The notes: generated by a model not told the origin, from the letters alone. A stretch of 64,000 nt of DNA from Clostridia bacterium (GCA_017623975.1 JAGANX010000037.1:310-64309); one strand, 5' to 3'. Shown: positions 31,301-51,355, counted from the stretch's first letter. Numbers and translations: made by a program.

Positions 31301-34300
31301 CTGGAACGCTGCCCAGTTGATAAGCTGAACGTTTTGAAGTCCTGTGCCGCCGATAATATTTCCGTCCTCATCCATATAGGAAATGGTTTTAAGCTTTTTA
31401 CAGCCGTAGAATGCTCCGTATTCAATAGCTTCAACCGTATATGGAATAACTACCTCTTCAAGAGCTGTTAAGCCTGCAAATGCGTAAGGTCCGATTTTTT
31501 CAATACCGATAGGCAAAACTACCTTTGTTATTGTATTCTCACCCAAGAATGCTACCTTTGTAAGGTTAGGATCCTCCTCCGAAATTTCGTCAATACCCTC
31601 TACCTTATCAATATAATCGTAGTTTGAGAATGCGTATTGGCTGATTTCAGTAAGGTTAAGGTCGGCAGGCACAATAACCTCACCGCCTAAGCCGAAGTAG
31701 TGGCTAAGACCGGGACCTGATCTTATCCATGGGTCTTTAACCTCAACGTCAACAGTTTCAGAGAAGTAAGTGTTTTTGCCTTCAAGCACTACCCTTACAG
31801 TTACAGAAGCAAAGCCCTCTGCCTTTGCGGTAACAACACCCTTTTCGTCTATTTCAACAATGTTGCTGTTGCTTGACTCGTATGTTAACCAAGCACCGTT
31901 AAGATAAGGAACAAAGTTTGTTCTAAGCTCAACAGACTCAGACGGGAACATCTTCAAATTGAAGCCGCCGCCAAAGAGCTTAACATCCCCTGTCATTCCT
32001 ATATCTCTTTCATCGTTGTTGAGATAGTAGTATGCTTTCAAGGTCTTATAACCAACAACGTCAAAGATGTCCGCAACAGGCTTATCGTACTCTCTATATT
32101 CCGGGTGGTCCTTGTCATTCACACCGAGAACAGTTATCTTAAACCTTTGGGTTTGACCGCTTGTTGGGTCCTTTGCAACAATCCAAGCATTACCTGCGCT
32201 TACTGCTACAAGCTTATCGTTTACTACCTTTACTACACCGCTGTTGCTTGACTGATACTCAATAAGCTCCTTCCAAGGATTAGTTGTGTTATCAGGATTT
32301 GTTTCAGCGTTTGGATAAAGAATTGGGTTTAACTGATATACCTGGTTGATGCTTAAATAATTTGTTTCGTTTGCTGATTCTTCAAAATAGAAGTCAACAT
32401 ATTCATCAGGTAAGCCGATTTCATATGTTGTCATATTAAGGGCATAGTCATAAGCTGTTACAACAAATGAATTTTTGTTTCTCGCCTTGTCCTTAATTGT
32501 TTGAACATAATCTGTTAATTCAAATTCAACATAGGTCGTATTATTAAATGTAGAATAAACAGGAGTGAGATAGCTTTCAAAGGATTCCATCAAGTTTTCG
32601 TATCCGTCCTTTGCAAGCTCCTCTGCTGTTGCACGTCTTACATAACCGAAGTTAAGTGCCATTGTGTAGTGGTTATCGTAAACCGCTACTCTTGCAAAAA
32701 GCCTATCCTTTTTAAGCTCCTTATCATATTCTGTAAAGAACTCACAATCTGTAATAACAGGAGCCTCGTAGTCAATTGTAATGGGGAACTCGAAGGTGTT
32801 CTTCAAGTTTGTATCTGCTCCGCCGTCACCGTAATCAAGGAAGCCCTCAATCTTAACGGAAAGCTGTGCATTATTAGGAAGGTCGTAGTCCTGTGTATCG
32901 AACTCAACCTCAATGTTTGCAGGATAGATAGAGCCGCCGTCACCGTAGGACTTACGAACATCGTAATCAACAGTCTCAAAAATAACCTCTCCTGTTGCAT
33001 CGTTTGTTATAGTAACAACTATCTTAGCAGCGTTTCTTAAAAGACCTGCCCAAACAAAGCGGAAGGAGTGAACAGTTTCATCAGAATATGAAAGTGCAAT
33101 ATAATCTCTGCTTGCGGAAATAACCTTATCCTGTGGGTTTTGTTGGAAGTAATATGAACCGAGATAGCTTACATAGTCGGAGTAAAGACCACCGATTGGG
33201 CGGGTTGGATAAGCATCCGCCATAATCTTATCGTCTTGTGAAATACCGTCATCAAGCTCGTCCTTATTTGTTTCAAAGTAATCTGTATCAAACAAAGGTG
33301 CCTTTGTCCAGTCCCCGTAGAATGCAAGGAACGGTGCGCCCAAGTCAACATCTGTACCGCTGACTGCATCAAGTGTGATAAAGCCTTCAACGTACATACC
33401 GTTTGCAAAGGACTCATCAAGATACTTCTTATCAGCATCAGACAATGTAATTTTAGCTTCTACAACGGCAACAGTGCCACCCTTTACGGTAACCTTGTCC
33501 CCGTCCTTAGTGCCGTTTGTAACCTTTACAAGCTCAAACTTAGCACCGTTTAAGAGGTAACCCTCCTCTGTAACGGTTGTGTCACCGCGAACTGTTTCAG
33601 TCTCACTAACGCCCTCTGTCATAACGGTTGCAGAAAGACTGTATGTAAGTGAAGTGTCACCGAAGTTGTTAATTGCAAATTTAATGTTGTAAACGCCTGT
33701 CTTATCCTTATCATCACCAAGCTCAATCTTGGTTTTATCCATAACAGAGCCGTCAAGCCTGTCGTATGTTTGGATATAAGCACTTGTTTTAGAAGCGCTA
33801 ACAAGGTTTGCAAGACCTGCACCCTGCTTTCTTACTGCGTAAGGCAAGCCGTTAGTGTTATACATAATGTCAGCAGTTGACATTGTCAAGCAGCTAACAA
33901 GTGCGTTTATTGTTTTTGATTTTTCTCTCTTTTGCTCAGGTGTTGTCTCAGGCATATTTTTAATGAACTCATATTCATTTTCAACATACTGACGCAAAAG
34001 TGCAGTGAAGCCCGCCATGTTAGGACAAGCCATTGATGTACCTGACAAACGGTCATAGCCGCCGCCTGTTACAGCGGACAAGATGTTACCGCCGTGAGCT
34101 GTAATTTCAGGCTTAATGCTCAAATCAGGAGCAGGACCCCATGATGAGAAGTCTGAAATAAACGGACCTGATGTTTGTGTACGGCTTATTTTAATTGTTC
34201 CCTTTTTGCTTGCAGCCAAAAGCTCACCGTCATCCTGTGAAATAGAACAGATAGGAATTGTAATTGTACCTGCGTTCATCTTAATATCACCGGATACATT

Positions 34301-35884
34301 GTTGTAAACGATGATAGCGGCAGCACCTGCGTTTTGTGCAGCCTGTGCCTTTTCTTCAAAGGTAGTCGAGCCACGGCGAACAAGAGCTATCTTGCCCTTT
34401 ACGTCCATACCAAAGTAGTCAGCAGGACGTCCCGCACCCGGAACAACAACGTATTCAAGGTCAATAGACTCAGTTGAGCTTGCAGGCAAGCGGTCCTTTA
34501 AAAGCTCCTCAAAGAAATCCTTTTCCTTGCTGGCTGCGTTTGTAGCCTCAACAAAGTAAATGATAGAGCCGTTATACAAAATATAAGGTGTCTTTTTACC
34601 GTTGATAGATGCAACAGACATAGCACCCTCGTATGTGGAAGGAGAGCCAACTGTTGATGTATCAGGGTTAGTTGTAAGACCTAAGTTACCGTTTTTGTCA
34701 GAGCCGTATGCGGAGTTGTAGCTGTTAGAAGCCGCAACTATTAAGGAAATGCCCGCATCTCTAATCTTTTGATACACATTTCCGTTTACCGCTTCCTTAT
34801 CACTCTCACGGCTGAAACCGCAAGCGGTACCCAAGGACATATTGATTACGTCAACTTCAAGAAGAACACAGTCTTCAAGAGCAGACAAAATCCAAGATGT
34901 ACGTGCGCTCTCCTCAACATCGGAGAAGGTTTTCATAGCAACGATCTGTGCCTGTGGCGCAACACCTGTAATAACATCGTCCTTACCTGCGATAACACCG
35001 GAAACGTGCGTACCGTGGTTGTTATGTAATGAGTAAACATCAGAGTCCGCATCTGCATAGTCAAAGGCGAAGGGAACCTTGTCGCTCATATAAAGGTCAT
35101 CGGCAGTAACACCGTTCATATAGAACTCTGCGCGTGTTTCCTTAGCGGCGAGCAAATCCGCAATCATTTTCTTGGTCAAGCCAAGCTTTTCCCTGTTTGC
35201 AGTGAAGTTATCATCGGAAAAGGCGGTATGCGTATAGTCAAGACCTGTGTCAAGCACGGCAACAACCATGCCCTCACCCTGATACTTGAAATCAGCACTG
35301 TTGAAAATACCTGTGCTTTCATAGAAGTTTACCTGGTTTTCAACAAGCTGAGATTCACACTTTTCATAAACCTCACCAACAATTACCGTGGAGTCCTCGC
35401 CTATCGCCTCACAGGCAGCATCAAAGTCACCCGCTTGAATCAAGATTTCAAATCCACTAAAAATTGTGTTGTAAACTGCACCCTCTGTAAACTTGATACC
35501 CTTGTCCTTTAAAGACTTAATGATGTTAGCCTTTTCAGCACTTGCCAAGGACATAACCTTAATTGCCTCTTGGGAGGATGCAAACTCCGCCATGGACATA
35601 GCCTTATCCGACTCACCGTAAGCGTCCATAATAGCGGGCATTTCCATATCAATAATTATGGAAATTGTATCGGTGTTTTTAATAGTACTCGGTAGCTTTT
35701 GAACAACGTTACCATTTAAAAACTGCTCGATATTGGTTTTCAAATCTCCGTTATACTCGCTAAGGTAACCGCCAAGTGGCACTTTACCCGAAACAGCAGA
35801 GGTACAAAGCGAGATTAACATTGTGAACAGCAACAAAAGTGATATTGCGACTGTTGCTATTCTTGCGACTTTCTTTCTTCTCAT
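28370..35884 (-). CDS. Giant (~2504 aa) cell-envelope S8 subtilase with PA domain, Big_2-like domains, ~820-aa BspA-type LRR region and C-terminal TM anchor
   Basis: Start MRRKKVARIATVAISLLLLF (ATG 35884, downstream of the promoter at 35948-35976). Triad motifs: VLDTGLD (Asp codon 35249-35251), HGTHVSG (His 35006-35008), SGTSMACP (Ser 34034-34036). PA-like GKIALVRRGSTTFEEKAQAAQNAGA lies between His and Ser. LRR units span ~29180-31650. An S/T/P linker, TM and KLKKSVK tail end the protein. Confidence 0.85.
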   Translation of the reverse strand: MRRKKVARIATVAISLLLLFTMLISLCTSAVSGKVPLGGYLSEYNGDLKTNIEQFLNGNVVQKLPSTIKNTDTISIIIDMEMPAIMDAYGESDKAMSMAEFASSQEAIKVMSLASAEKANIIKSLKDKGIKFTEGAVYNTIFSGFEILIQAGDFDAACEAIGEDSTVIVGEVYEKCESQLVENQVNFYESTGIFNSADFKYQGEGMVVAVLDTGLDYTHTAFSDDNFTANREKLGLTKKMIADLLAAKETRAEFYMNGVTADDLYMSDKVPFAFDYADADSDVYSLHNNHGTHVSGVIAGKDDVITGVAPQAQIVAMKTFSDVEESARTSWILSALEDCVLLEVDVINMSLGTACGFSRESDKEAVNGNVYQKIRDAGISLIVAASNSYNSAYGSDKNGNLGLTTNPDTSTVGSPSTYEGAMSVASINGKKTPYILYNGSIIYFVEATNAASKEKDFFEELLKDRLPASSTESIDLEYVVVPGAGRPADYFGMDVKGKIALVRRGSTTFEEKAQAAQNAGAAAIIVYNNVSGDIKMNAGTITIPICSISQDDGELLAASKKGTIKISRTQTSGPFISDFSSWGPAPDLSIKPEITAHGGNILSAVTGGGYDRLSGTSMACPNMAGFTALLRQYVENEYEFIKNMPETTPEQKREKSKTINALVSCLTMSTADIMYNTNGLPYAVRKQGAGLANLVSASKTSAYIQTYDRLDGSVMDKTKIELGDDKDKTGVYNIKFAINNFGDTSLTYSLSATVMTEGVSETETVRGDTTVTEEGYLLNGAKFELVKVTNGTKDGDKVTVKGGTVAVVEAKITLSDADKKYLDESFANGMYVEGFITLDAVSGTDVDLGAPFLAFYGDWTKAPLFDTDYFETNKDELDDGISQDDKIMADAYPTRPIGGLYSDYVSYLGSYYFQQNPQDKVISASRDYIALSYSDETVHSFRFVWAGLLRNAAKIVVTITNDATGEVIFETVDYDVRKSYGDGGSIYPANIEVEFDTQDYDLPNNAQLSVKIEGFLDYGDGGADTNLKNTFEFPITIDYEAPVITDCEFFTEYDKELKKDRLFARVAVYDNHYTMALNFGYVRRATAEELAKDGYENLMESFESYLTPVYSTFNNTTYVEFELTDYVQTIKDKARNKNSFVVTAYDYALNMTTYEIGLPDEYVDFYFEESANETNYLSINQVYQLNPILYPNAETNPDNTTNPWKELIEYQSSNSGVVKVVNDKLVAVSAGNAWIVAKDPTSGQTQRFKITVLGVNDKDHPEYREYDKPVADIFDVVGYKTLKAYYYLNNDERDIGMTGDVKLFGGGFNLKMFPSESVELRTNFVPYLNGAWLTYESSNSNIVEIDEKGVVTAKAEGFASVTVRVVLEGKNTYFSETVDVEVKDPWIRSGPGLSHYFGLGGEVIVPADLNLTEISQYAFSNYDYIDKVEGIDEISEEDPNLTKVAFLGENTITKVVLPIGIEKIGPYAFAGLTALEEVVIPYTVEAIEYGAFYGCKKLKTISYMDEDGNIIGGTGLQNVQLINWAAFQDCDLRGKLVLDNARAIGDYAFAGNKNLVEVEIPKTLRSVGGYAFFGNEDLKSVTVHAENVKYGPYVFAYCKSLNDIETVDENGNKIVSINTAVIPQGAFYFCDSLTNITIGNDVNVIGEYAFAGAGIASFTVTSENASFKADSSKYILSKDGTELVIVAPTVKGEFKLDDANVTTIGVGAFAENKNITKVVIPSATKVGKYAFAECIKLESVTLGALEEIGDYAFFVTSIASHPSFDGLDAIGKYAFAYTNVGSVVIPNNVLVGEGAFSECEKLESITIGNDVTIELGAFMYNNRLDGRWSVSSYYKNGKNYYYPDYNSPLKQLTIGNNVVIGESAFMGAADLEAVTMGENIVIGNQAFYNSCALKAILDTSGANVGFKNVKSIGELAFSGDEQYVYADANLTNPMVVNGKYVFQYYGAAFEAIDLTNVESFAKGAFAYCTQLKDVALGEQTRAIPELAFYGCTKLENINLGKVETVGSNAFAGAESLANIDLSSATTVEDYAFTLGGATSVVLNPNGTNIGEGAFAYCPKLTSVQNLGASKEIASYAFAESGITKIDLTGAEVIGDHVFKKENTQGDLTAFDVEITLGEGLKSVGDNPFAFCKLQPFAQIGAYEFNGKEYQTVTLTFDISDTVKVINGSLYCKVNTGYELITYGGADANGYVTVAEDTVRISSYAFVGTNVETVVLPHSLDAIGHKAFFNCDSLTTVIFKSYEAPILEEQLDVAYYNSYDNIPGGGKYNLPLNNGEILVKDGLGIVDYYMWNVPSGMYYDVFFGANFMNHIGHIDRKLTMVRPSNGQNYETFILGQYFGKVIDGSISATDETLAAIAAIAKIPKNIRLSHEPLVVAAREAYNKIATRDQQALVADYSALVTAENKIQRLKDEQSGSGEQDKPSTPGSGDKPITPDTPSSGSTTTPSTNDSTVGSTPTVDSMGGAAPNAQGSNVGFVVVIIVLSVLVVCGTAFAVIYIVKLKKSVK

Positions 35885-35947
35885 TTTTCCAAATAGCCTT
35901 TCTATAATATACGTGTATAAATTATAATGATAAACATACGTGATACA

Positions 35948-35976
35948 TTTTAGCATATAAAGGTAGAAAATTCAAG
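35948..35976 (-). promoter_or_regulatory. Sigma-A-type promoter of the proteinase gene
   Basis: Minus strand reads TTGAAT, a 17-nt spacer, then TAAAAT with TG at the extended -10 position. Confidence 0.55.
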
Positions 35977-36310: not shown

Positions 36311-36339
36311 ATTGACAATTTAACTGAAATATGTTAAAA
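36311..36339 (+). promoter_or_regulatory. Sigma-A-type promoter of the CxxC-membrane-protein/polyferredoxin pair
   Basis: TTGACA (36311-36316), a 17-nt spacer, then TAAAAT (36334-36339) with an upstream TG. Confidence 0.6.
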
Positions 36340-36372
36340 TAGAATGGAATATTTTTAGAAAGGTAGTTATAT

Positions 36373-37275
36373 ATGTCGAAGGAAAGCTTGAAAAAGATTT
36401 ATTTGATATATGGCATAGTGCTTAGCGTGCTTTTGGCAGTTTTGTCTGTCTTGCTTGTGGTTATGTGTATTGACATTTACAAAAACGAGCCTGATTTGTT
36501 CACCCGTCAAAGCGTTTCAGAGCATTTTGCAAAAATTGCAGTTTTCGTCTATCTTACAATTGCAGTTATAATCGGTGGCGGTATTCTTTCAATCGTTTGC
36601 CCACTTGAAAAAGATAAATTGAAGGGCAGCGTAAAGGACGGCGTTGTTTTAAGACGACTTTCAAAAAAGCTTACCGTTATTAGTGATGAGGCGAGTGCTA
36701 AAATAGAAAAGCAACGCATTATCCGTTTTGCTATGATTATTGTCAGCATGGTTTTGGTAATCGGTGCTACTGTAAGCTCATTTATTCAAGTTCTCACCTC
36801 TTATGATGTTAATGCTGCTATAAACAAGGCGGTTATAAACGGTTGGCTAACTGTAACCTGGCATTTCTTAGCTCCCACCGCTTACCTAATAGTTACCGCT
36901 TACGTTTGTAAAAGAAGCATTAAGAAGGAGCTTGAAGTTGTTAAAGGCGAGCTTAAAAATGCAAAAACAGCGGGGGATGTGTCTAAAAAAGAAGATATCA
37001 CAGCTTCTTGTCAAGCAGATACAGTGGATGACAGATGTCAAGAGCAAGATGAAAAAAATCTTGGTCCCGTTACCAAATTAACAAACGAGCTTGGCGAAAC
37101 AGTTGAGCGAATTAAAACACCTAAAAAATGGCACAAAATCGCTTATTATTCAGTTTTCGGCATCCTTGCCTGCACCGCCGTTACCTTTATCATAGTAGGT
37201 TTAGCAAACAACGGTGCCTCTGAGGTTGTAAGAAAAGCAATTGCAATTTGTAAAGAATGTATAGGAATGGGGTAA
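36373..37275 (+). CDS. 5-TM membrane protein ending in a C-terminal CxxC (AICKECIGMG); function unknown
   Basis: 300 aa: four N-terminal TM helices, a ~75-aa charged loop with two Cys, a fifth TM, then the tail ...RKAIAICKECIGMG. Its stop is 3 nt before the next ATG. Confidence 0.65.
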   Translation: MSKESLKKIYLIYGIVLSVLLAVLSVLLVVMCIDIYKNEPDLFTRQSVSEHFAKIAVFVYLTIAVIIGGGILSIVCPLEKDKLKGSVKDGVVLRRLSKKLTVISDEASAKIEKQRIIRFAMIIVSMVLVIGATVSSFIQVLTSYDVNAAINKAVINGWLTVTWHFLAPTAYLIVTAYVCKRSIKKELEVVKGELKNAKTAGDVSKKEDITASCQADTVDDRCQEQDEKNLGPVTKLTNELGETVERIKTPKKWHKIAYYSVFGILACTAVTFIIVGLANNGASEVVRKAIAICKECIGMG

Positions 37276-37278
37276 ATT

Positions 37279-39384
37279 ATGAACAAAGTACTAAAAAAAT
37301 TAAAAAGCCTTATTCCCTCTAAGCGTAAGCTTATTCAGCTTTATTCGGCACTTTTATTTAATGCTAACATCAAGGGCTTCTTCACAGGCGATATATATAG
37401 AGGCTCTACTAAAAAAATGTGTGCCCCGGGCATTAACTGTTATTCTTGCCCGGGTGCTATTGGTGCATGTCCCCTTGGCTCACTTCAAAACGCCCTTGGC
37501 ACAAGCTCCCACGGTACGATTTTTTATGTAATCGGTATTTTACTTCTATACGCATTACTTTTAGGCAGATTTATTTGCGGCTTTTTGTGTCCCTTCGGGC
37601 TTATACAAGAGCTGCTTTACAAAATCAAAACTCCTAAGCTTAAAAAGAACAAGGTTACAAGAATTTTATCTTACTTAAAATATGTAATTCTCGTTTACTT
37701 TGTTGTCATCATCCCTGTTCTTTATTTACTGTACTCAAACAATTCCGTTCCCGTTCCCGGCTTTTGCAAATACATATGTCCGGCAGGAATTTTGGAGGGT
37801 GCCTTTGGCTACCTATCCCACCCAAGCAACGCGCAGGATATGGCGGCACTTCGCTCCTTATTTACTTGGAAATTCTGTTTAACTGTTTCCATTATCTTAG
37901 GCTCCGTGTTCATTTTCAGGCTATTCTGCCGTTTTCTTTGCCCACTTGGCGCGCTTTACGGTCTTTTCAACCACTTCTCTGTTTTCGGCATCAAGCTTGA
38001 AAAAAGCAAGTGCATAGATTGCGGTCTTTGTGTAAGCAAATGTAAGGTAGATATACGCCACGTTAATGACCACGAATGTATAAACTGCGGAGAATGTATT
38101 GAGGTTTGCCCAACGCAAGCAATTTCTTGGAAGGGCTCAAAGCTTATTTTGCCACCAAATGAAATTGAAAACCCAATCCCTGTGACTGATGATAGCCCTG
38201 AGGATATTAAGCAATTGGCAGAGGAGCAAAAGCAAGAGTTTTTAGCAAGGAACGAAAAAATCAAAAAGCGCAACAAGATACTAAAAATAGTTGTATCCTC
38301 CCTTATGCTGGCGCTTTTAGCCTTTGCTTTAATTTACTATAACTTTATTGATGTACCAAAAACCAATGACAATGAAAACGATAATAACAACACTCAAAAC
38401 GAAACTCCGCTACCGCCTGACGAGGGTAATGATGTCGGTAACATTGTACAAAAGCAGGAGCTTTTGATATTCAACGGTGACGGTGTTAGCGAAGCTGTTA
38501 TTGACCCAACAAGCTACAAGGGTAAGATTGTAATCGTTTCCTTCTGGAATTACGATAGCAACAATTCTTCCTTAGAGGCTCTTGACAAAATTGCAACAGA
38601 ATATAAAGAAAAAGCGGTTGTAATTGCTATACATACAAGTGATAATTTTGACGGTGCTTGTGATTATATTAAGGCAAATTACCAAAATTCTTCCGTTATT
38701 TTTGCAAAGGACTATGCAAAGGATGAAAAGGAAAACATCTGCTTTGCCGCTTACGGTGGTGAAAATGGCAAGCCTTTAACCCTTCTGCTCAACGAAGCAA
38801 GCGTAATCGTTTCTTCCGAAAAAGCAATTATAGGCTATGATGCGCTTAAAGCTGCGGTTAAAAAAGAAATAAGGAACGGTGATGCAAGCAACCCACCTGT
38901 TGTTGGCAACCAGGTTGGTAACCTTTGCCCATCTTACCCAATGGATATCTTTGATGAAAACGGCTTTACAGGTGAAAAAATTGACCCTGTGAAAACCGGA
39001 AAATTAACAATTATCAACTTCTGGGGTACTTGGTGCGGCGGTTGTGTTGCTGAGCTTCCTTACTTTGACAGAATTGCCGGCGAATATAAGGACAAAATTA
39101 ATGTTATTGCCGTACACACTCACTCATTGTTCGATACTGCCGCAGGCTATGTAGAGCAATATTACAAGGACTCCTCTATCATCTTCACAAAGGACAATCC
39201 CATTGACCCTGATGATGAATATTCCGCTGAGGTCTTTTTCAAGAAATTAGGCGGTGGCGATGCTTATCCTATCACTATAATTCTTGATGAAAACGGTGTT
39301 ATTATTAAAACAATTTTCAGTGCTTTAACTTACGAAGACCTTAAAAATGTAGTTGATACTGAGCTTAACAAATACCAAGATTAA
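37279..39384 (+). CDS. NapH-like polyferredoxin membrane protein fused to an extra TM and two TlpA/redoxin-like thioredoxin-fold domains
   Basis: 701 aa. Membrane Cys motifs: CYSCPGAIGACPLG, CGFLCPFG, CKYICPAG, CRFLCPLG. Two ferredoxin motifs: CIDCGLCVSKC and CINCGECIEVCP (38011-38111). Next come the TM ILKIVVSSLMLALLAFALIYY and an N/D-rich linker. Trx-like domain 1 has a degenerate motif FWNYDS (38542-38559). Domain 2 has an intact WCGGC (Cys-Gly-Gly-Cys codons 39034-39045). Confidence 0.8.
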   Translation: MNKVLKKLKSLIPSKRKLIQLYSALLFNANIKGFFTGDIYRGSTKKMCAPGINCYSCPGAIGACPLGSLQNALGTSSHGTIFYVIGILLLYALLLGRFICGFLCPFGLIQELLYKIKTPKLKKNKVTRILSYLKYVILVYFVVIIPVLYLLYSNNSVPVPGFCKYICPAGILEGAFGYLSHPSNAQDMAALRSLFTWKFCLTVSIILGSVFIFRLFCRFLCPLGALYGLFNHFSVFGIKLEKSKCIDCGLCVSKCKVDIRHVNDHECINCGECIEVCPTQAISWKGSKLILPPNEIENPIPVTDDSPEDIKQLAEEQKQEFLARNEKIKKRNKILKIVVSSLMLALLAFALIYYNFIDVPKTNDNENDNNNTQNETPLPPDEGNDVGNIVQKQELLIFNGDGVSEAVIDPTSYKGKIVIVSFWNYDSNNSSLEALDKIATEYKEKAVVIAIHTSDNFDGACDYIKANYQNSSVIFAKDYAKDEKENICFAAYGGENGKPLTLLLNEASVIVSSEKAIIGYDALKAAVKKEIRNGDASNPPVVGNQVGNLCPSYPMDIFDENGFTGEKIDPVKTGKLTIINFWGTWCGGCVAELPYFDRIAGEYKDKINVIAVHTHSLFDTAAGYVEQYYKDSSIIFTKDNPIDPDDEYSAEVFFKKLGGGDAYPITIILDENGVIIKTIFSALTYEDLKNVVDTELNKYQD

Positions 39385-39387
39385 AAT

Positions 39388-39416
39388 AAAAATCTCCGTG
39401 TCAAACGGAGATTTTT
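39388..39416. terminator. Intrinsic terminator (A-run/hairpin/T-run) after the polyferredoxin gene
   Basis: aaaaatctccgt-gtcaa-acggagattttt. Confidence 0.8.
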
Positions 39417-39424
39417 AATTCATT

Positions 39425-39462: not shown

Positions 39463-42306
39463 TTATTCAACTGTTACAGTAAACTCGTACTCGCCTGCAT
39501 TTTCTGCGGAAATTGCAAAGTAAATCCAGTTGCCCATTGTGTCCTCAATTGTAAGTGTATTGTTTTCTACATCTACAAGAGTTGAGCCAGCCATTGACCT
39601 TTCAACCAAGCAAAGATTAGCCTCGCCATTTAATGTAATTGTCAGCTTGCAGCCCTCGTTTGCGGAGAATACATAGTATGTGATTCCGTTTACATCTGCG
39701 GTATATGTACCGCTTTCTGTCACTTCAATAGCATTTTCCTCGGTTGTGCCCTGTGCAAGCTCCTCTGATGTATATTCAAGCAAGATGCTTTCGTTAGCAC
39801 CGTTCTGTGTGGAAACAGCTATTGTATAGAACATATTATTTGTTTCAAATGTATATGTAGCCTTGTCGCCAGCTACTGTCGACATACCTATTGGAGTGTC
39901 GTTTTCGTCAATAATTCCGTCCTCATTTGTGTCAGCATTATAAACCTTAATTACTGCGTTTGCGCTATTTGCGGAAATTGTAAATTTAACGCTTTGACTT
40001 GGACGAACATAAAGTGTGTACCAAACTGTACCGTTTTCCTTAACCTCTGCGGTTTCCTTCATCTCATCTACTGTATCAAAATCAAATGGAGCATCAGCCG
40101 CGCCTGTCTTAATACGGGTAAGTGAGTATGAGCCGTAGTTAGACATTTCAAGAGCAATTTCTTCAAAGTTGGAGGTATATCCCTCGGGATATTCAACCTT
40201 AACTACATAATTATCCGCAAACACAACGTCTGCAAATACTACGCGTCCGTTCTCTCCTGTTGTGCCTCTTACTACCTCTGTTAATTCATCACCGTTTTGC
40301 TTGTACAGTATAACAACAATATTGCTTGCTACATCACCGTCTTTGTTTACATAAATTGTGTAATCAACTTTTTCTTCGCCAAAATTAAATTTTACGGAAG
40401 TAGCAAAGTCAGCACCTACATCAAATCCATTTACGGCAATCAAAACCGTTTCTCCCTTTGAAAGTGGGAACAAGTGCTTGCCATCATCTGTAACAAGACC
40501 TACTCCGTCGCCGTCAAAGTGAACATCAACGCTTGCATCGGTTGTTACGCAAAGAGTGCCGTCTTCCTTTGCTGTGTATGAATAGTAAATTGTTGTATCC
40601 TTTTCAATTGTAGCTTCCTCTGTGTATCCGTCAGCACCCACCTTATCAGTTACATCAAACGGGTTATTGTGTGTACCCGGAGCTTTCATTGAAACGTCAA
40701 CGCTTTGGGCTTCGTCTGCTGTGATAGAGAAAATTGATATTTGTCCTTTTGCCTCGGAAAGATTAAATGTACCGTTAACTATTTGTGAAAGATCATCGTT
40801 ATAATCAAGCTTAACGCCTGTTGAAACAATGCTAACAACCTTTCTGTGTCCGTTAGGAACAGCAAACCAAACTGTTTGACCCGCTTCAAGGTTCAACTGT
40901 ACCTCACCGAGCAATATGATAGGAGATTCCTTGCTTGCACCCGGAATCTTGTTTGTTATCTTGATTTTACCAACAGCTGAGTCATTATAAACGAAGTATG
41001 CAGGCTCTATATAAACGTTATCAGCCCTTAAAACTGCTGTATAGTATCCGTTTGGTGCTACAAAGGTAGCAATACCGTTTTCACCTGTTACAATAGTTTC
41101 AATGATCTCATCATCTACATTATAAACATCAATTACATAGCCGGCAAGCTCAGTTGACACACTAACGGTATATGTAATTTCGGAGTGAGTAACAACCGTT
41201 ACCTCAATCGTCGTAGAGTCGCTTGTGAAATGGAATTTACCGTCATCACCCGCACCAATTACCTCATATGCAGGGCTTACGATAATTACTTCAACGCTGT
41301 AATCGCCTTCACCTAAATTTTCAAAGGTAGCAATGCCGTTTTCGTTTGTTTTAACAACATCTTCAAGGAAGCCGTCAGCATAAAGCTTAACCTGTGCGCC
41401 AACAACAGCATCACCAAACATTGTGGCAACCCTTACAGAATATGTTGCCTTCTTTTTAGCAATAATTGTGCAGCCGTACTCGCCGCTTTCAAATGTTGCT
41501 TGTGCTTGGCTTAAATCATACGCACCACCGCTTAAAACCTCAGTAACCCTTGCACTCAATTCGCCGCCGTGCAATGTGATAACGCCTGTTACCATACCGT
41601 CCGGGTCGGTTATAAGTGAGTCAGCATAAGTATTCTCACCCATTTGGAGCTGAATTTTAGCACCGTCAACCGCTTGTTCTTTATCGTCAAATACATTAAT
41701 TACAACCCTTTGAACGTAAATTACAAGCTCACGTGAGCCTTCGTCAAAATATACATATTCGCTTGAAGCAATAAAATCATCAACGCCTGTGATGGAGTTA
41801 ATCTTTGCCTTCAATTGACCCTCTTTGAGGTCATAAGTTCTTGTACCAACTCCGTCTGCGCCTGTTTTGATAGGCTGAAAGAAGCAGGTTTCGCCTTGAC
41901 AAATTTGAATAGCTGCGCCGTTTACACCCTTGCCTGTTTCACGGTTAATAACCGTAACCTTTACAAGATTTGGGTCATCCTGTGGCTTTTGGTCATCAGG
42001 TGGAGTTACAGTTGAGCTTCCTGCACCTGAATTATCTGTGCTTGGAGTCGTTGTAGAGCTGTTTGTACCCGGGGTGTCTGTACCGGAATTGCTTGTAGAA
42101 TTGTCTGTGCTTGAATTATCTGTATTGCCGGGGTTTTGGCTTGGTGTAGTAGAGTTGCCTGTTGAACCGCTGTTATCAGTTGAACTGCTTGCTCCGCTTT
42201 GTGAGGAGCCTGCGCCACCGTCACCGTTACAGCTACATGATGCAAATACTGCAAGCATGCCAAGCAAAAGCATTAAAGTAGCCATAAGTATAGCAATTTT
42301 CTTCAT
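39463..42306 (-). CDS. 947-aa tethered lipoprotein with four prealbumin/CarboxypepD_reg-like repeats and several PPC-like beta-sandwich modules; function unknown
   Basis: Lipobox FASC and an ~80-aa S/T/N/G low-complexity tether. Repeats resemble VKVTVINRETGKGVNGAAIQI... and YSVRVATMFGDAVVGAQVKLY...NENGIATFENLGEGDYSVEV. Later modules start with N-P-F / A-P-F-D motifs. Confidence 0.7.
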   Translation of the reverse strand: MKKIAILMATLMLLLGMLAVFASCSCNGDGGAGSSQSGASSSTDNSGSTGNSTTPSQNPGNTDNSSTDNSTSNSGTDTPGTNSSTTTPSTDNSGAGSSTVTPPDDQKPQDDPNLVKVTVINRETGKGVNGAAIQICQGETCFFQPIKTGADGVGTRTYDLKEGQLKAKINSITGVDDFIASSEYVYFDEGSRELVIYVQRVVINVFDDKEQAVDGAKIQLQMGENTYADSLITDPDGMVTGVITLHGGELSARVTEVLSGGAYDLSQAQATFESGEYGCTIIAKKKATYSVRVATMFGDAVVGAQVKLYADGFLEDVVKTNENGIATFENLGEGDYSVEVIIVSPAYEVIGAGDDGKFHFTSDSTTIEVTVVTHSEITYTVSVSTELAGYVIDVYNVDDEIIETIVTGENGIATFVAPNGYYTAVLRADNVYIEPAYFVYNDSAVGKIKITNKIPGASKESPIILLGEVQLNLEAGQTVWFAVPNGHRKVVSIVSTGVKLDYNDDLSQIVNGTFNLSEAKGQISIFSITADEAQSVDVSMKAPGTHNNPFDVTDKVGADGYTEEATIEKDTTIYYSYTAKEDGTLCVTTDASVDVHFDGDGVGLVTDDGKHLFPLSKGETVLIAVNGFDVGADFATSVKFNFGEEKVDYTIYVNKDGDVASNIVVILYKQNGDELTEVVRGTTGENGRVVFADVVFADNYVVKVEYPEGYTSNFEEIALEMSNYGSYSLTRIKTGAADAPFDFDTVDEMKETAEVKENGTVWYTLYVRPSQSVKFTISANSANAVIKVYNADTNEDGIIDENDTPIGMSTVAGDKATYTFETNNMFYTIAVSTQNGANESILLEYTSEELAQGTTEENAIEVTESGTYTADVNGITYYVFSANEGCKLTITLNGEANLCLVERSMAGSTLVDVENNTLTIEDTMGNWIYFAISAENAGEYEFTVTVE

Positions 42307-42376
42307 TTCTTATACCTCCTAAGGATTCTTACAAGTGTAATTACACTATCTTAAATTGTCACCGTATTTTGTCACT

Positions 42377-44143
42377 TTAACCGATATATACAACAAAGTT
42401 AAAGTAGATAGCTGTTTGTGCATCTTCGCCCATATATATAATCTCGAAGTTTTGGTTAGCATTAACAACAACGCTAAGTGTACCCATGCCACTTTCAGCT
42501 ACATATTCTATACCGTCATTTGCTATGATTTTTATATTCTCTGCGTTTTTAATAGTGATAGTTGCTTTTGTTGTAGTTCTAAACAAAACGCTTACGTCCT
42601 TTTCAAGCAACGCTGCGTATGTTTTTATGCTTTCACTGCCGTCCGCAGTTAAGGGAGCAGGCTTATTTTGTGTGCCTAATGCTTTTCGATTTTCATATGC
42701 ACAGGCAAAAAGCCATGCGTTTTCTTCAACAACGCTTGCTGCTTCATCTCCAAATATATGAAACTCACTATTCAAGTCGAACCAGCCGTTATGCTCACCA
42801 ATATTCTTTATTGCCTGTGCAAGCTGCTTATTTAACGGATACATTCCATTTGTACCGCATAGCTCTGCGTACTGATAAAGCATATCATTATAGCTTTCTT
42901 TTGCAATAACAGCTCCGCTTTCATCATAGAAAACCTTACCCAGTCTGCCTGTTTCACACATAGCAATAAATGACGGCAAATACTTATAAATCGTTTCCGT
43001 GCTTGTGGAGCTTTCAACAACCGCGCTGGAAATTCTTATGTAAATTATAGGTCCGTCAACAGTATTCAAATGATAATATCCATCATTTTCATTATATACA
43101 ACTGTTAAGCCTTTGTCAGTAACATCGAAATCAACAAATTCGCTGTTAACGTAGCTATCAACCTTTATAGCATTTTTGTCAGCTTGAACATCTGTCCAAG
43201 GCATATTTACCGTGGCATTACCGATTCTTTCAATTTTAAGAACACATCCTGACTCTGTAAAGGAACGAATGCCTATAACAATTTGTGTTGTACCACCCGG
43301 ATTACCGATATTAACGCCCTCGTTTTTAACTTCAAGCTCAAAGGCGCCATCCTTCACTTCAATAGGGCAGGATGCCAAAACATTGTGCGGTGAACCGTAG
43401 TAGCCAAGCGTTACAGCCCTTTTCGCCTCATAGCTAACCCTATAAATACCGCCACGTGTAGGGGTAAATAAGAAATATGAGTTTGCGGGGCGGTCGATTG
43501 TTACATAGGTTGCGCCCTCCTCTACTTGTACTGCATTATATGGGACATGGGTAATACCGTCAGTATCATAAACATAAATTTCTTCTTTGTTGGTTTCATC
43601 TGCATAGCTGCAAAGAGACACTGTTGCCTCAGGCTCCTCAGCTGTTAAAATGCAGGCACTTTTATCATAGTGGAGCTGACCCTCCATTGGCATAACCTCA
43701 AAGGTGTATTCACCTGCTTCAAGCTTAAAAGAAGCATTACCGCGTATCATAGGCACTTGGCTAACTTCTTCTCCATCAGCATTAAACACGCTAACGATAA
43801 CTGTAAAATCAGGCTCGTTACCAAACGCATCAACTGCTTTTACCTTATATGTTATCACTTTTGGTGTTTCTTGTGGTTTATCATCGTTTGTGCCATCATT
43901 TTTGCTATCATCTGTACTGCTTGGCAAGGAGCTCTCTGTATTCGAATCCCCCGTACCAATACTACCGCCAACACTTGAATTATCGCCGCCTTGTGAGCCC
44001 GATGTATCCGTTTGCGCGCCATCGCCTGCTACACTTGATTGAGAGGATTGTGTTGAGCCATCCTCTCCGCCGCAAGATGCAAAGACTAAGATAACGCTAA
44101 AAATCAAGCACAAAAGCGTTAATATAGTAAAAATCTTCTTCAT
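42377..44143 (-). CDS. 588-aa tethered lipoprotein sharing a cryptic DGYYH...YP(L/V) module with the 1137-aa neighbour; function unknown
   Basis: I prefer the start MKKIFTIL (ATG 44143, GGAG RBS 6 nt upstream). Lipobox FASC, an S/T/D tether, one prealbumin-like repeat, then NENDGYYHLNTVDGPIIYI ... MYPLNKQLAQAIKNIGEHNGW. Confidence 0.7.
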   Translation of the reverse strand: MKKIFTILTLLCLIFSVILVFASCGGEDGSTQSSQSSVAGDGAQTDTSGSQGGDNSSVGGSIGTGDSNTESSLPSSTDDSKNDGTNDDKPQETPKVITYKVKAVDAFGNEPDFTVIVSVFNADGEEVSQVPMIRGNASFKLEAGEYTFEVMPMEGQLHYDKSACILTAEEPEATVSLCSYADETNKEEIYVYDTDGITHVPYNAVQVEEGATYVTIDRPANSYFLFTPTRGGIYRVSYEAKRAVTLGYYGSPHNVLASCPIEVKDGAFELEVKNEGVNIGNPGGTTQIVIGIRSFTESGCVLKIERIGNATVNMPWTDVQADKNAIKVDSYVNSEFVDFDVTDKGLTVVYNENDGYYHLNTVDGPIIYIRISSAVVESSTSTETIYKYLPSFIAMCETGRLGKVFYDESGAVIAKESYNDMLYQYAELCGTNGMYPLNKQLAQAIKNIGEHNGWFDLNSEFHIFGDEAASVVEENAWLFACAYENRKALGTQNKPAPLTADGSESIKTYAALLEKDVSVLFRTTTKATITIKNAENIKIIANDGIEYVAESGMGTLSVVVNANQNFEIIYMGEDAQTAIYFNFVVYIG

Positions 44144-44162
44144 ATAATTCTCCATTTACATA

Positions 44163-44200: not shown

Positions 44201-47200
44201 TTACTGTTGAGCCTTATCTACCTCAATAAGTCTATATACTTCCGCTGTAACTATATCTACCAAGGATCTTTCAACTGCAACAATTGTCCAGTGGTCAAGC
44301 GCTTCATAAAGCTCTTGAACCAATGCATCAATCTCGCCCGCAATGTCCTCGCTTGCAACATCAGCACTGTCAAGCAATGCATTAAGGTCTGCAAGCTTTT
44401 CATCAACACTCTTCGGTGCAGTCAGTGGTCTATAATAATAGCAAAGCTTTGTCCAAGAATCTTTTACGCCTTCAAATGTGAATTTATCCATCAATGCTTG
44501 AAGCATTACTCCAAGCTCCTTATCAACAGGAACACAGCCCTGGCGTTCAGGATAAATAACCTCTGTGCTTGTTCCGTCTGTACCGTCATCAAGCTTGTCA
44601 AGATATTTTCTCATAGCTTCGGTGTAATCAGGGCCATTACCGTGGTAAATACCCTTTATAATATCTTCCATTTTGTACAATTCCCAGTTTGCATCAAAAT
44701 TGTCGCCCCAAAGCTCTCTTAAAGCTGCCTTACCGCCCTCTTCATAGTAATTTTTGAAATATACGTATGCTTCCCTATCCGTCTCTGTCATACGCATATC
44801 AAATGCGCCTTCTTCAATAAGCGTTTCAAGAGATTGTTTGCCGAAAATATTAGTTGTAAAGTGGAAATCTGCATACACTATTGAACCCAGCTCACCATTT
44901 GGCAAGAGGTGACAATAGTAGCCGTATCTTGGGTCATCTTCATCCTCGCAAAGCTTAACGTCAATGCCCGTTGCAATAATTTCTTGGCTAATTTCATCGT
45001 AAGAGAATACACCCGGTGATGCTTCTTCAAACACATCAAAGGTTTCGCCTACATATTTAAGGTCAAATGTAAATGTACCTGCTGCATAAACGTCATAGTA
45101 CGCAATATCAATGTAGTATTCAACGCCTTCTTCAAAGTAGCCTATCATTGTACAGTTTGTAAGGTCTCTTTCATAAACACCATTGCCGTCCGGGTCAACA
45201 AGAAGCTCAGGACAGTATCTCTCACCTGTGAAGGAATCAAGATAAAGAACTCTGTCGCCGCCGTTTTCATTTACCCACTGCTCAAAGCTACCTATGAACA
45301 CCCATCCGTTCACCTCTTGTGTAGCGTTAGATGTAATACGGTAAACGCCTGATTTTGTAGGAACGAACTTGTAAAGGAAGCCTCTTGGCATAATGATTTG
45401 TGTATATGTTACTGTGTTTTTAAAGCCCTCCTCGCCCTCTAATGTTTCAACAGCATCAAATGCGGAGAATGTTGTAAGACCGCGAATTGGGTCCTCTAAC
45501 TGAGAGGCTGTACCGTATGCCTCATAGTAAGAGCAAAGCTGGAGCCAAGTATTTTCATCATAACCAAATGCTGCTTTCTGCTTAGCAAATTCATCAAGAT
45601 AGCCTTTAAGCTCCTCTGTTACAGGACAATATCCATAGAGCTTAGAGTTAGACGCATAATTACAGTACATAATGAATGAATTGTAAACGTCCTTACCGTT
45701 GTAAATAAACTCGCCTTGGTCAACCAAAACGGTTGTAACGGTAAATCTTTCTTCCTCAGGGAAGAGCAAGGAAAGCTGTGTGTTGGAGCCTAAAAGACTT
45801 GCCAAAAGAAGCGGACCGTCCTTTGTGCCAACGTGGTAGTAGCCATCCTCTTCATTAAACACAACGTCAACGTAGGTTTCAAAGAAGATATCGTCATACT
45901 TGTCAGTTGCTGCATATCTTGGAATATAAGTTTCAATTTCCAATTCCTTTGCATCAACTACCTTAAAGTTGTCAAGATAAACTCTATCGTCGCCATCCAT
46001 ATCGCTTTCATCCTTGATGTAGCAGAAGGCAACCTCATAGGTTCCGTCCTGTGTTGCTACCCATGGGCAACAGGTTTGCCATGGCTCTTGCAGCAAATTA
46101 CCGTCATCGTCCTCCATTGGTCTTCCGGAAATTGTGTAAATATCCTTACCGTCAACCAAAACATAGAGAACGTCATAAAGTCTTTGCGTTGAAGCATAAT
46201 AGTCAAACACAATAGCCTCACCGGCTTTAAGCTCTACATCAACGTAAAGAATGCAGTAAGAGTTGTCTAAATCTACGTTTGTAGATGCCAAGCACTTTTC
46301 TCCATCCTTTTCGTAAACAATAAACGGCCATGCGTATTCAGCATCCTCACCATCGGTTTCAGGTCTGAATGTTATGTTAATATCACCGTTTACAACAGCA
46401 TCCTTAATTTCATTTTCAGGGGACATTTCAATGTCCGGCTTTACCATAGGAGAAAGATCGTAGATTGATGAGTAAAGCTCCTGCTCATAGTTACTTGATA
46501 CATAGTGCTCGAATGCGTTAAAGAAATATCTTTCACCTAAAACGCCGCCCACCTGTATCATAGAAATAACGCCATAACGGTCAATCATTACAGAGCATGG
46601 GTTTACTGTAAAGCCAAATGCTTCTTGAATACCGCTTACATCCTTAACCATTGGGAAGGTTAATGCACAACCGTCCTCTGTATAATAGCCCGGCTTTGCA
46701 AATTCTTCCATAAAATCTCTTATGTTCTTGTCATTATCGGCACCGTATGCGTTAATACCGATAATTTCAATATCGTCACCGTATTTTTCATAAGCTGCTT
46801 GAATGTATGGGAATTCCTCAATACAGTAAGTACAGGTTGTGTACCAGAAGTTAAGCATAACAGCCTTTTTGCCGTTTGCTAAAAGGTCGGAGAGCTTAAC
46901 CTGCTTTGTTTCAATCATACCTGTGTCCTTGTTGTAAACGTATGCAGTAAGCTCAAAGTCATACATTACATCCCCAAGTCCAAGTTGAAGCCCTGAAAAA
47001 TCATTGTCCTCATTGGGAACAATTTCCGTTTTAACCTTGATTTCAACGCCTGTTGTACCAAGCTCATAGAAATCATCATGAACGTAACCGGCAGGGAAAT
47101 TCTCTACATAAACGTATTTAGCATCCTCAGGATACGCTTTCAAAACGACAGAACCGTTTTCCGCTGTTTTACCCCAAGCGGCTGTGCCTGAGCCAAGCTC

Positions 47201-47614
47201 CGCTTCGCTTTGGATAAATACACTTACATTTGGAATAGGCTTGCCTGTATTTTCATCAATGATGAGAATGGTGTATTCTGATTTGTTTGGCTTCGTGCCT
47301 GTACCGTCCCCACTATCAGATGGCTTGGAGCTTGATGTGGAGTTGTTTGTTGAGCCACTGTCAGGTGTGCTTGGTACAGTACAGCTACTGTCACTTGAAG
47401 CACCACTATTGTCAGAGCTGCCTGTTGATGGAGTGGTATCGGTTGAGCCACCGCTATTATCCACAGAGCCGGAGCCGCCAACAGAGCTATCAGGATTAGA
47501 CTGGGAAGAATTATCGGAATTACCCGTTCCTGAGCCGCAAGCGGACAACATCAGCATTACTGCTGTTACTACTAATGCAAGTAAGATTAGTAGCCTTTTG
47601 TTCGTCTTTTTCAT
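44201..47614 (-). CDS. 1137-aa tethered lipoprotein with an embedded TlpA-like CxxC thioredoxin domain and two copies of the DGYYH-type module
   Basis: Lipobox LSAC, an S/T/G/D tether and a prealbumin-like repeat. The Trx-like stretch is KAVMLNFWYTTCTYCIEEFPYIQAAYEKYGDDIEIIGINA (CTYC codons 46823-46834). Later: NEEDGYYHVGTKDGPLLL...CPVTEELKGYL and RYGYYCHLLPNGELG...VPVDKELGVMLQAL. Confidence 0.75.
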   Translation of the reverse strand: MKKTNKRLLILLALVVTAVMLMLSACGSGTGNSDNSSQSNPDSSVGGSGSVDNSGGSTDTTPSTGSSDNSGASSDSSCTVPSTPDSGSTNNSTSSSKPSDSGDGTGTKPNKSEYTILIIDENTGKPIPNVSVFIQSEAELGSGTAAWGKTAENGSVVLKAYPEDAKYVYVENFPAGYVHDDFYELGTTGVEIKVKTEIVPNEDNDFSGLQLGLGDVMYDFELTAYVYNKDTGMIETKQVKLSDLLANGKKAVMLNFWYTTCTYCIEEFPYIQAAYEKYGDDIEIIGINAYGADNDKNIRDFMEEFAKPGYYTEDGCALTFPMVKDVSGIQEAFGFTVNPCSVMIDRYGVISMIQVGGVLGERYFFNAFEHYVSSNYEQELYSSIYDLSPMVKPDIEMSPENEIKDAVVNGDINITFRPETDGEDAEYAWPFIVYEKDGEKCLASTNVDLDNSYCILYVDVELKAGEAIVFDYYASTQRLYDVLYVLVDGKDIYTISGRPMEDDDGNLLQEPWQTCCPWVATQDGTYEVAFCYIKDESDMDGDDRVYLDNFKVVDAKELEIETYIPRYAATDKYDDIFFETYVDVVFNEEDGYYHVGTKDGPLLLASLLGSNTQLSLLFPEEERFTVTTVLVDQGEFIYNGKDVYNSFIMYCNYASNSKLYGYCPVTEELKGYLDEFAKQKAAFGYDENTWLQLCSYYEAYGTASQLEDPIRGLTTFSAFDAVETLEGEEGFKNTVTYTQIIMPRGFLYKFVPTKSGVYRITSNATQEVNGWVFIGSFEQWVNENGGDRVLYLDSFTGERYCPELLVDPDGNGVYERDLTNCTMIGYFEEGVEYYIDIAYYDVYAAGTFTFDLKYVGETFDVFEEASPGVFSYDEISQEIIATGIDVKLCEDEDDPRYGYYCHLLPNGELGSIVYADFHFTTNIFGKQSLETLIEEGAFDMRMTETDREAYVYFKNYYEEGGKAALRELWGDNFDANWELYKMEDIIKGIYHGNGPDYTEAMRKYLDKLDDGTDGTSTEVIYPERQGCVPVDKELGVMLQALMDKFTFEGVKDSWTKLCYYYRPLTAPKSVDEKLADLNALLDSADVASEDIAGEIDALVQELYEALDHWTIVAVERSLVDIVTAEVYRLIEVDKAQQ

Positions 47615-49178: not shown

Positions 49179-49212
49179 ATATGTAACTATATCTATGTAT
49201 AGGAGGATATTT

Positions 49213-51321: not shown

Positions 51322-51355
51322 TTTTTACAAAAGGCATTTAAAAGGAGAAAACGAA

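Follow-up and report, generated by a model that had tools for sequence, protein, structure and literature searches.

Two adjacent genes on a DNA stretch of 64,000 nucleotides from an uncultured gut lineage of the Clostridia (Clostridia bacterium, GCA_017623975.1 JAGANX010000037.1:310-64309; this whole stretch is referred to as the window) probably encode a membrane complex that would pass cytoplasmic reducing equivalents to a thioredoxin domain at the cell surface. On the basis of sequence evidence the probability of this reading is estimated at about 0.6. Gene A encodes a membrane protein of 300 residues with a CxxC motif in its C-terminal tail. Gene B, which follows on the same strand (+) and in the same frame, encodes a protein of 701 residues, consisting of a NapH-like four-helix membrane core, a cytoplasmic 2×[4Fe-4S] domain, a further transmembrane (TM) helix and two ResA/TlpA-like thioredoxin folds. 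The system would be a functional analogue of DsbD/CcdA on an unrelated Fe-S scaffold. A preliminary description of the region had reported both open reading frames (ORFs), separated by 3 nucleotides, and the coordinates as well as the TAA-ATT-ATG junction are confirmed here.

Conservation of a three-component gene set

The genomic context of the system was analysed in 82 species-level loci, all ORFs of which were searched with hidden Markov models of the thioredoxin domain and of the polyferredoxin. An ORF ending in C-x-E/Q-C-(I/V)-G-x-G-stop is located directly upstream of the polyferredoxin gene, on the same strand, in 82/82 loci. The thioredoxin is fused to the polyferredoxin in 58 loci, with one domain in 53 and two domains in 5. 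In 22 further loci it is encoded by a separate gene, adjacent and on the same strand, which lies either immediately downstream (13 loci) or immediately upstream of the tail gene (9 loci). No thioredoxin was found in two loci, one of which is a truncated contig. That the components occur both fused and split argues strongly for a joint function of the three, and strongly supports the prediction that the polyferredoxin, the CxxC-tail subunit and the thioredoxin constitute an obligate gene set, fused or adjacent. The same combination is found in RefSeq for the cultured species Peptoclostridium acidaminophilum, where a TlpA disulfide reductase family protein, a CD1871A family CXXC motif-containing protein and a 4Fe-4S binding protein occur together. 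Apart from these components no neighbour recurs across most of the 82 loci, among which a donor enzyme, Msr and peroxiredoxin were sought.

The fusion protein is represented by >5000 clusters at 90% identity, and the family is common in gut Clostridia. In the variant present in the window the thioredoxin is both fused and duplicated, one copy being catalytically dead as judged from its motif, while the micro-protein subunit is expanded to five TM helices.

Invariant cysteine residues

The Fe-S module of gene B contains 18 Cys residues, 10 in the membrane core and 8 in the ferredoxin domain. None of them varies in alignments A1 and A2, and hardly any variation occurs at these positions in a set of 122 representatives obtained by clustering at 50% identity. 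It is therefore evident that the motif arrangement is not due to chance. In addition, C586 and C589 of the second thioredoxin domain are invariant among the fused proteins. Conservation of the CxxC and membrane Cys motifs had been set beforehand as a test on which the reading could fail; the motifs prove to be invariant, and the reading stands.

In an alignment that includes NapH from Escherichia coli (A4), C100/C104, C217/C221 and all eight ferredoxin Cys form invariant columns. The four Cys of the N-terminal motif (C48, C54, C57 and C64) and the pair C163/C167, in contrast, are absent from E. coli NapH, although all six are invariant in the family. The loops in which these six family-specific residues are located are exactly the two with a predicted extracytoplasmic position.

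The abundance of membrane Cys would also be compatible with a pure thiol cascade similar to that of DsbD, in which a cytoplasmic thioredoxin reduces the inner CX3CP Cys and the Fe-S clusters have a structural or regulatory function (oxygen or redox sensing), off the electron path. The core contains ten invariant Cys and the tail another two, with Pro residues beside the Cys much as in the helices of DsbD/CcdA, and NosR holds at most 8 Fe, so that its CX3CP motifs are probably not clusters (PMC5928378). However, fused and unfused members alike retain all eight ferredoxin Cys with few or no exceptions, which argues for a core catalytic role, and the system has no linked gene for a thioredoxin or thioredoxin reductase. 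A cascade of this kind is therefore considered unlikely.

The NapH-like membrane core and the ferredoxin domain

A Pfam scan, as suggested in the preliminary description, detects Fer4_5, Fer4 and AhpC-TSA/Redoxin in gene B. The Fer4_5 match (46.3 bits, threshold 22) comprises two stretches which correspond to the NapH-type membrane CX3CP segments, and Fer4 scores 30.3 bits (threshold 21.1), with the Fer4 and Fer4_7 matches located at residues 239–288. The polytopic membrane context, the ferredoxin motifs and the Fer4_5 score above the gathering threshold place the protein in the NapH-like polyferredoxin superfamily (PF12801). The two CxxCxxCxxxC ferredoxin motifs that had been described earlier start at C245 and C267. 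Four CxxxCP motifs had been claimed as well, three of which are genuine (C100/C104, C163/C167 and C217/C221); the fourth match to the pattern, CIEVCP, is part of the second ferredoxin motif. Beside these three motifs the N-terminus contains a Cx5CxxCPx6CP cluster.

The AlphaFold2 model shows a long helix at residues 308–357. Searches of PDB sequences for a solved structure of a NapH-like membrane core, using phmmer and a profile, matched only the thioredoxin and ferredoxin parts; the profile search matched the ferredoxin region alone, and Foldseek with the full gene B model returned thioredoxin folds only.

Gene B shares 22% sequence identity with NapH, such that both CX3CP motifs and both ferredoxin motifs align, and 27% identity with YccM over residues 19–281. 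Membership of the NapH/MauN family itself is rejected by the corresponding models (TIGR02163, 71.5 bits versus a cut-off of 213; NF007013, 54.2 versus 234). NapH-like proteins serve respiratory reductases (PMC8238504), and the homology to NapH and YccM might thus point to a respiratory module, i.e., a quinol dehydrogenase or an electron-input unit between the membrane quinone pool and an extracytoplasmic acceptor, with the thioredoxin as adaptor. This reading is very unlikely, not only because the NapH/MauN cut-offs are missed, but also because NapH has no counterpart of the obligate CxxC subunit or of the six additional Cys on the outward side, and lacks a thioredoxin. The gene B system, in turn, lacks a NapG/NapA partner: napG/napA and mau genes are absent near the operon in the window and do not recur in the 82 loci, and the same holds for nap, nos, rdh and cytochrome genes in the window and across the loci.

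The thioredoxin domains

Both thioredoxin folds are modelled by AlphaFold2 with a predicted local distance difference test score (pLDDT) of ∼90, at residues roughly 395–532 and 555–700. Domain 2 is recognized by Pfam as AhpC-TSA (44.2 bits, cut-off 26) and Redoxin (42 bits, cut-off 26.6), and the AhpC-TSA, Redoxin and Thioredoxin matches are located at residues 573–680. Domain 1 is not detected by Pfam; nevertheless, its high pLDDT and its similarity to domain 2 (36% identity, E=1e-30, in a BLASTP comparison) indicate that it is a real fold, as far as can be judged from the model. The earlier view of domain 1 as a duplicate that has decayed to WNYDS, with WCGGC retained in domain 2, agrees with this comparison. 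The catalytic CxxC of the TlpA/ResA/CcmG type is thus present in domain 2 and missing from domain 1, and in the closest relatives (P0002–P0007) domain 1 likewise lacks these Cys.

According to Foldseek, domain 2 resembles ResA, CcmG, Etrx and TlpA, with target-normalised template-modelling scores of 0.56–0.86. The Foldseek matches of the gene B thioredoxin folds (ResA, CcmG/DsbE, Etrx1/2, TlpA and FetE) are all membrane-tethered envelope thioredoxins. The named NCBIfam families closest to gene B are NapH/MauN and ResA, and every named family falls far short of its cut-off. The NCBIfam cut-offs reject membership of a named subfamily (ResA, 57.4 versus 170; StoA, 43.1 versus 210; DsbE, 32.2 versus 123; TlpA, 32.1 versus 230).

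The active sites in the family follow the pattern WC(G/T/P/S)(P/G)C. Such thioredoxin-type sites and the ResA-like fold favour the reductive direction. The opposite direction has been considered as well: the thioredoxin would insert disulfides like DsbA and be re-oxidised by the Cys-rich core, in the manner of DsbB or VKOR-thioredoxin, with the electrons flowing via the Fe-S clusters to a cytoplasmic acceptor. In its layout the system is reminiscent of the known bacterial fusions of VKOR and thioredoxin, and neighbouring exported proteins are rich in Cys (24 in an S8 peptidase and 20 in a TlpA-domain lipoprotein). The active sites, however, are WCGPC, WCGGC or WCTPC and not CPHC, the best structural matches are the reductive ResA/CcmG/Etrx/TlpA proteins, electrons released by the oxidation of thiols are poorly accepted by low-potential [4Fe-4S] ferredoxin domains, and the hosts are gut anaerobes. 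An oxidative function is accordingly improbable.

Among the 120 closest homologues, 74 contain a single thioredoxin domain, 37 contain two active domains and 9 have a single CxxC despite their length; the clade of the window belongs to the last group. The thioredoxin domain has been duplicated repeatedly in the family. Two relatives (P0044 and P0082) contain two near-identical thioredoxin repeats, pointing to very recent tandem duplications. In P0044 the ferredoxin part is separated from the thioredoxin part by a polytopic insert, and P0082 has an N-terminal polytopic extension. The C-terminal module of the family is evolutionarily plastic. A further relative of 668 residues (P0292) combines the polyferredoxin and a thioredoxin (WATSCGPC) with a C-terminal region containing a YQSCNESSCF motif. 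A DsbD-alpha-like nature of this region, which would turn the protein into a DsbD-like alpha/gamma pair on the Fe-S core, was considered but is treated as unproven, since DsbD_N scores 23 bits versus a cut-off of 25 and neither phmmer against PDB sequences nor BLASTP against E. coli DsbD-alpha gave confirmation.

Membrane topology

The topology of gene B was predicted from hydropathy and from the positive-inside charge bias, averaged over 76 homologues. The N-terminal tail (5.8 lysine and arginine residues, K+R, per 15 residues), loop 100–125 with the first CX3CP motif (K+R 5.6 per 26) and the ferredoxin domain with the segment preceding the fourth TM helix, TM4 (5.0 per 14), are predicted to be inside, and loops 38–75 (2.2 per 38) and 156–192 (2.1 per 36), as well as the region after TM4 (K+R 0.7), to be outside. 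The separate thioredoxin genes carry an N-terminal lipoprotein signal (ISGC, LLGC, VSGC, LTAC and others) or a TM anchor in 22 of 22 cases, and the TM anchors share a YYNF motif with TM4 of the window. The signals and anchors on the split thioredoxins and the charge bias after TM4 place the thioredoxin outside the cell; since only one TM helix lies between it and the ferredoxin domain when the two are fused, the Fe-S domain would be inside. This predicted arrangement is strongly supported. A cytoplasmic position of the thioredoxin domains, which had been named in advance as an outcome that would speak against the reading, is not what the homologues and the split loci indicate.

In five loci of window-like lineage (L037, L038, L047, L049 and L060) the polyferredoxin and thioredoxin ORFs overlap by 3–19 nucleotides, and the thioredoxin ORF begins just ahead of the YYNF anchor. 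These overlaps reflect either gene fissions at the TM4 boundary or assembly frameshifts.

The CxxC-tail subunit

Hydropathy analysis of gene A reveals four strong and one weak TM segments, and AlphaFold2 predicts helices at residues 3–38, 45–75, 105–143, 150–199 and 253–280, followed by a tail helix at 282–299. Both are in agreement with the preliminary description of a protein with five TM helices ending in AICKECIGMG. All 49 clusters of full-length homologues end in C-x-E-C-I-G-(L/M)-G. Residues 264–300 match the NCBIfam model NF040920 (CD1871A family CXXC motif-containing protein) over model positions 2–38 of 38 with 28.9 bits, a near miss at a cut-off of 32, and it is to this family that the small clostridial CxxC proteins beside 4Fe-4S proteins, mentioned in the preliminary description, belong. 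Like CD1871A, gene A contains a TM helix followed by a C-terminal tail C-x-E-C-I-G-x-G. The small size of the family (about 40–50 residues, with typical members of 44–50) is not shared by gene A, which has 300 residues and four extra N-terminal TM helices.

With a profile of the tail sequence at least 6663 clusters are matched, most of them 44–50 residues in length, which NCBI names CD1871A family and sometimes 'thioredoxin'. The number of TM helices in the tail proteins is 1, 3 or 5 and thus odd throughout; the N-termini and the segment before the last helix are rich in K/R, and the tail is near-neutral. The odd number of helices and the K/R-rich segment favour an orientation with the N-terminus inside and the C-terminal tail outside, and it can be stated with moderate confidence that the predicted position of the CxxC is on the outer face, beside the six family-specific Cys.

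The CD1871A family is named after CD18710 of Clostridioides difficile 630, a gene within a region that has been listed as a conjugative transposon, and in P. acidaminophilum the module is carried by an 809-kb megaplasmid. The module may be horizontally mobile.

A Cys-rich membrane protein with a CxxC partner could alternatively serve in metal handling, with the core reducing Cu(II)/Fe(III) like CcoG, a NapH-like protein for which metal reduction is reportedly known, and the thioredoxin domain acting in metal insertion like TlpA/Sco. In favour of this reading, there is a weak Pfam match to Fer4_18 (26.8 bits versus a cut-off of 27), the JGI label of one tail protein is 'predicted metal-binding membrane protein', and TlpA and FetE are among the structural matches. 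The Fer4_18 match, on the other hand, is below threshold, and linkage of the operon to genes for copper or iron transport, Sco or oxidases was not seen in the window and the 82 loci. Moreover, a thioredoxin is the universal partner across the examined loci, with a thioredoxin-type CxxC rather than the CxxxC of Sco. These differences make a role in metal handling extremely unlikely.

Proposed mechanism and comparison with known systems

The features described above would be explained by transfer of reducing equivalents to the surface thioredoxin in the following way. A low-potential cytoplasmic donor, probably reduced ferredoxin, would load the two [4Fe-4S] clusters. Similar to what happens in HdrB or ferredoxin:thioredoxin reductase, the inner CX3CP pair might convert the one-electron chemistry of the Fe-S clusters into two-electron thiol/disulfide chemistry. 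The reducing equivalents could then cross the membrane by way of the outer loops, which are rich in Cys and may be re-entrant, and of the CxxC tail of the partner, and arrive at the WCGGC site of thioredoxin domain 2. The substrates of this domain would be exported proteins or surface redox enzymes, the disulfides or sulfenic acids of which it would reduce; a neighbouring TlpA-domain lipoprotein is one candidate. The Cys-less domain 1 may be a non-catalytic module for substrate binding or a spacer.

Several points weigh against this mechanism. Because assembly of Fe-S clusters is confined to the cytoplasm, the outer Cys can only be thiol/disulfide sites, metal sites or part of re-entrant loops. 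The membrane core is poorly modelled by AlphaFold2 (pLDDT 36–65 with an alignment of 76 sequences), the orientation of the tail derives only from charge bias and TM parity, and no electron-donor gene is conserved nearby among the 82 loci. Even for NapH, NosR and RdhC no role of the CX3CP motifs has been established (PMC5928378). Literature searches on CD1871/CD1871A, PF12801 with thioredoxin and related combinations yielded no functional study, and the database names are generic. The preliminary description had allowed for a family that is common and already characterised; it turns out to be common, but no functional characterisation was found.

To our knowledge, all characterised routes that keep surface thioredoxins reduced are DsbD/CcdA-type thiol relays fed by cytoplasmic thioredoxin. 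The proposed complex would do the same job as DsbD/CcdA/ScsB (with the acceptors ResA, StoA, CcmG, Etrx and TlpA), and its acceptor domain is structurally of the ResA/CcmG/Etrx/TlpA type. Unlike in DsbD/CcdA, however, the membrane part is an Fe-S protein, the donor is likely to be of ferredoxin type instead of a cytoplasmic thioredoxin, and a micro-protein subunit is required. The DsbD/CcdA transmembrane domain (PF02683) gives no match in the products of gene A and gene B at E≤0.1. The chances are about even that the family represents a third, mechanistically distinct class of envelope-reducing systems, in which an Fe-S polyferredoxin and a CxxC micro-protein of ∼45 residues would export electrons of low potential, derived from ferredoxin, to thioredoxins at the surface, independently of DsbD/CcdA and of cytoplasmic thioredoxin.

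Ferredoxin:thioredoxin reductase and HdrB use Fe-S clusters for the reduction of disulfides, and the conversion of one-electron Fe-S to two-electron disulfide chemistry is proposed here by analogy with these enzymes. They are soluble or peripheral and unrelated in sequence, whereas in the present system the conversion would be combined with transmembrane transfer.

NosR and RdhC/PceC have a NapH-type helix core with two cytoplasmic CX3CP motifs and a covalent redox domain on the outer face (PMC8238504, PMC5928378), and NosR also contains a cytoplasmic 2×[4Fe-4S] domain as in gene B. NosR and PceC are NapH-like proteins fused to extracytosolic flavin mononucleotide (FMN) domains and have been proposed to act as modular transmembrane electron conduits (PMC8238504, PMC5928378); thioredoxin fusions are not described in the survey of such FMN fusions (PMC8238504). 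In gene B the outer module is a C-terminal thioredoxin which follows an extra TM helix, whereas in NosR/RdhC it is an N-terminal flavinylated FMN-binding domain. The gene B family also differs in its six extra outward Cys, its obligate CxxC-tail subunit and the lack of ApbE, nos and rdh genes. The joining of a NapH-like core with an envelope thioredoxin pathway is a combination of known kinds.

The only literature found on this gene set, a 2025 preprint (bioRxiv 10.1101/2025.11.06.686285), describes a 'novel operon' in gut Clostridia that combines a 4Fe-4S ferredoxin with a TlpA-family disulfide reductase and a CxxC protein. The operon is statistically linked there to side effects of immunotherapy and is used to predict immune-related adverse events; the functional comments of the preprint are annotation-level speculation, and topology, mechanism and family analysis are not included. 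The three components are the same, in the split form that occurs in Lachnospiraceae-type loci. The window, on the other hand, contains the fused form, a duplicated and half-degenerate thioredoxin and a tail protein of 300 residues with five TM helices. As the split operon is already a gut-microbiome marker of immunotherapy toxicity, its mechanism would be of immediate use.

Envelope thiol maintenance comprises protein folding, repair after oxidative stress and possibly also sporulation or the activity of surface enzymes. If the proposed mechanism is correct, an Fe-S route ties this maintenance directly to the ferredoxin pool in strict anaerobes. It would provide a function for the abundant CD1871A micro-proteins and for many proteins labelled only '4Fe-4S binding protein', and a role for the long-unexplained CX3CP motifs of NapH, NosR and RdhC; a distinct class would then be present in thousands of lineages of gut Clostridia. 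Cultured carriers are known, e.g., P. acidaminophilum and Enterocloster hominis.

Organization of the operon

The positions of the individual features are listed in Table 1. The promoter-like site is located 33 nucleotides 5′ of the gene A start, and the ATG of gene A is preceded by a GGT-rich ribosome-binding site. With this promoter-like site 5′ of gene A and the hairpin terminator 3′ of gene B, the two genes are predicted to form a self-contained bicistronic operon. The stop codon of gene A (TAA, 37273–37275) is followed by ATT and the ATG of gene B. The ribosome-binding site of gene B, GGAATGGGG, is situated within the 3′ end of gene A, which suggests that the two genes are translationally coupled. 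A search of the operon and its surroundings against Rfam identified no RNA element, the sole match being a sub-threshold one on the terminator hairpin.

The genes are separated by TAA and a single codon, ATT (junction at 37273–37281), and read-through of the stop would give one product of 1003 residues. Natural fusion of the CxxC tail to the polyferredoxin N-terminus was not observed among the homologues examined. The N-terminal extensions of polyferredoxins in homologues are mostly charged and devoid of a signal peptide; a few contain TM helices and none contains the tail motif.

Table 1. Position of the operon features in the window (residue numbers refer to the respective gene product).
Feature	Coordinates	Strand	Description	Basis or remarks
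Promoter-like site	36312..36340	+	TTGACA, 17-nucleotide spacer, TAAAAT, extended-10 TG	Sigma-70-like, 11/12 matches; consensus match only
Gene A	36373..37275	+	300-residue membrane protein, five TM helices, predicted N-in/C-out	Long form of CD1871A-type CxxC-tail subunit
Last TM helix and tail of gene A	37162..37272	+	Residues 264–300	CxxC, C293/C296 (nucleotides 37249–37260), invariant in alignments A3 and A5
Gene B	37279..39384	+	701 residues; NapH-like polyferredoxin, TM helix and two thioredoxin folds	Pfam, NCBIfam
Outward loop with four Cys	37420..37473	+	C48-x5-C54-x2-C57-P-x6-C64-P	Family-invariant, not in E. coli NapH
Inner CX3CP motif 1	37576..37593	+	C100/C104-P, cytoplasmic end of TM helix	Fer4_5 and NapH alignment; common to NapH
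Third CX3CP motif	37765..37782	+	C163/C167-P, second outward loop	Family-invariant, not in NapH
Inner CX3CP motif 2	37927..37944	+	C217/C221-P, cytoplasmic end of TM helix	Common to NapH
Ferredoxin domain	37993..38142	+	Cytoplasmic 2×[4Fe-4S]; Cys 245, 248, 251, 255 and 267, 270, 273, 277	Fer4, Fer4_7
TM helix (TM4)	38272..38349	+	Residues 332–357, cytoplasm to outside	KIKKRNK before, acidic N/D-rich linker after
Thioredoxin fold 1	38431..38883	+	Degenerate; WNYDS (residues 423–427, nucleotides 38545–38559) in place of WCxxC	AlphaFold2, BLASTP
Thioredoxin fold 2	38896..39381	+	Active, ResA/TlpA-like; WCGGC (residues 585–589, nucleotides 39031–39045)	Pfam, Foldseek
Terminator-like hairpin	39387..39417	.	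GC-rich, with A and T runs on its sides	Directly 3′ of gene B stop

Neighbouring genes

A predicted lipoprotein of 1137 residues (44201–47614, −; signal MLMLSAC) contains a TlpA/AhpC-TSA-like domain at residues 214–357 with a CTYC motif, as well as a large Cys-rich C-terminal region; the total of 20 Cys was given above. Similar proteins, 600–1200 residues long and with a thioredoxin domain, are encoded close to the operon in roughly 10 of the 82 loci. The lipoprotein is a candidate client of the proposed reductase, or a candidate parallel acceptor.

Divergent from the operon lies a surface S8 peptidase of 2528 residues (28370–35956, −), with PA, fn3_5 and LRR_5 domains and the 24 Cys noted above. 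Its adjacency to the operon is kept in L001, L004, L005 and about 16 loci of the window lineage, and could be due to synteny or to a functional link.

The regions 39463–44155 (−) and 49165–53317 (+) encode further large predicted lipoproteins or secreted proteins of 947 (SpaA/CarboxypepD_reg-like), 592, 718 and 677 residues. Their Cys content of 0.8–2.1% is high for Gram-positive exoproteins and would fit a need for thiol maintenance at the cell surface.

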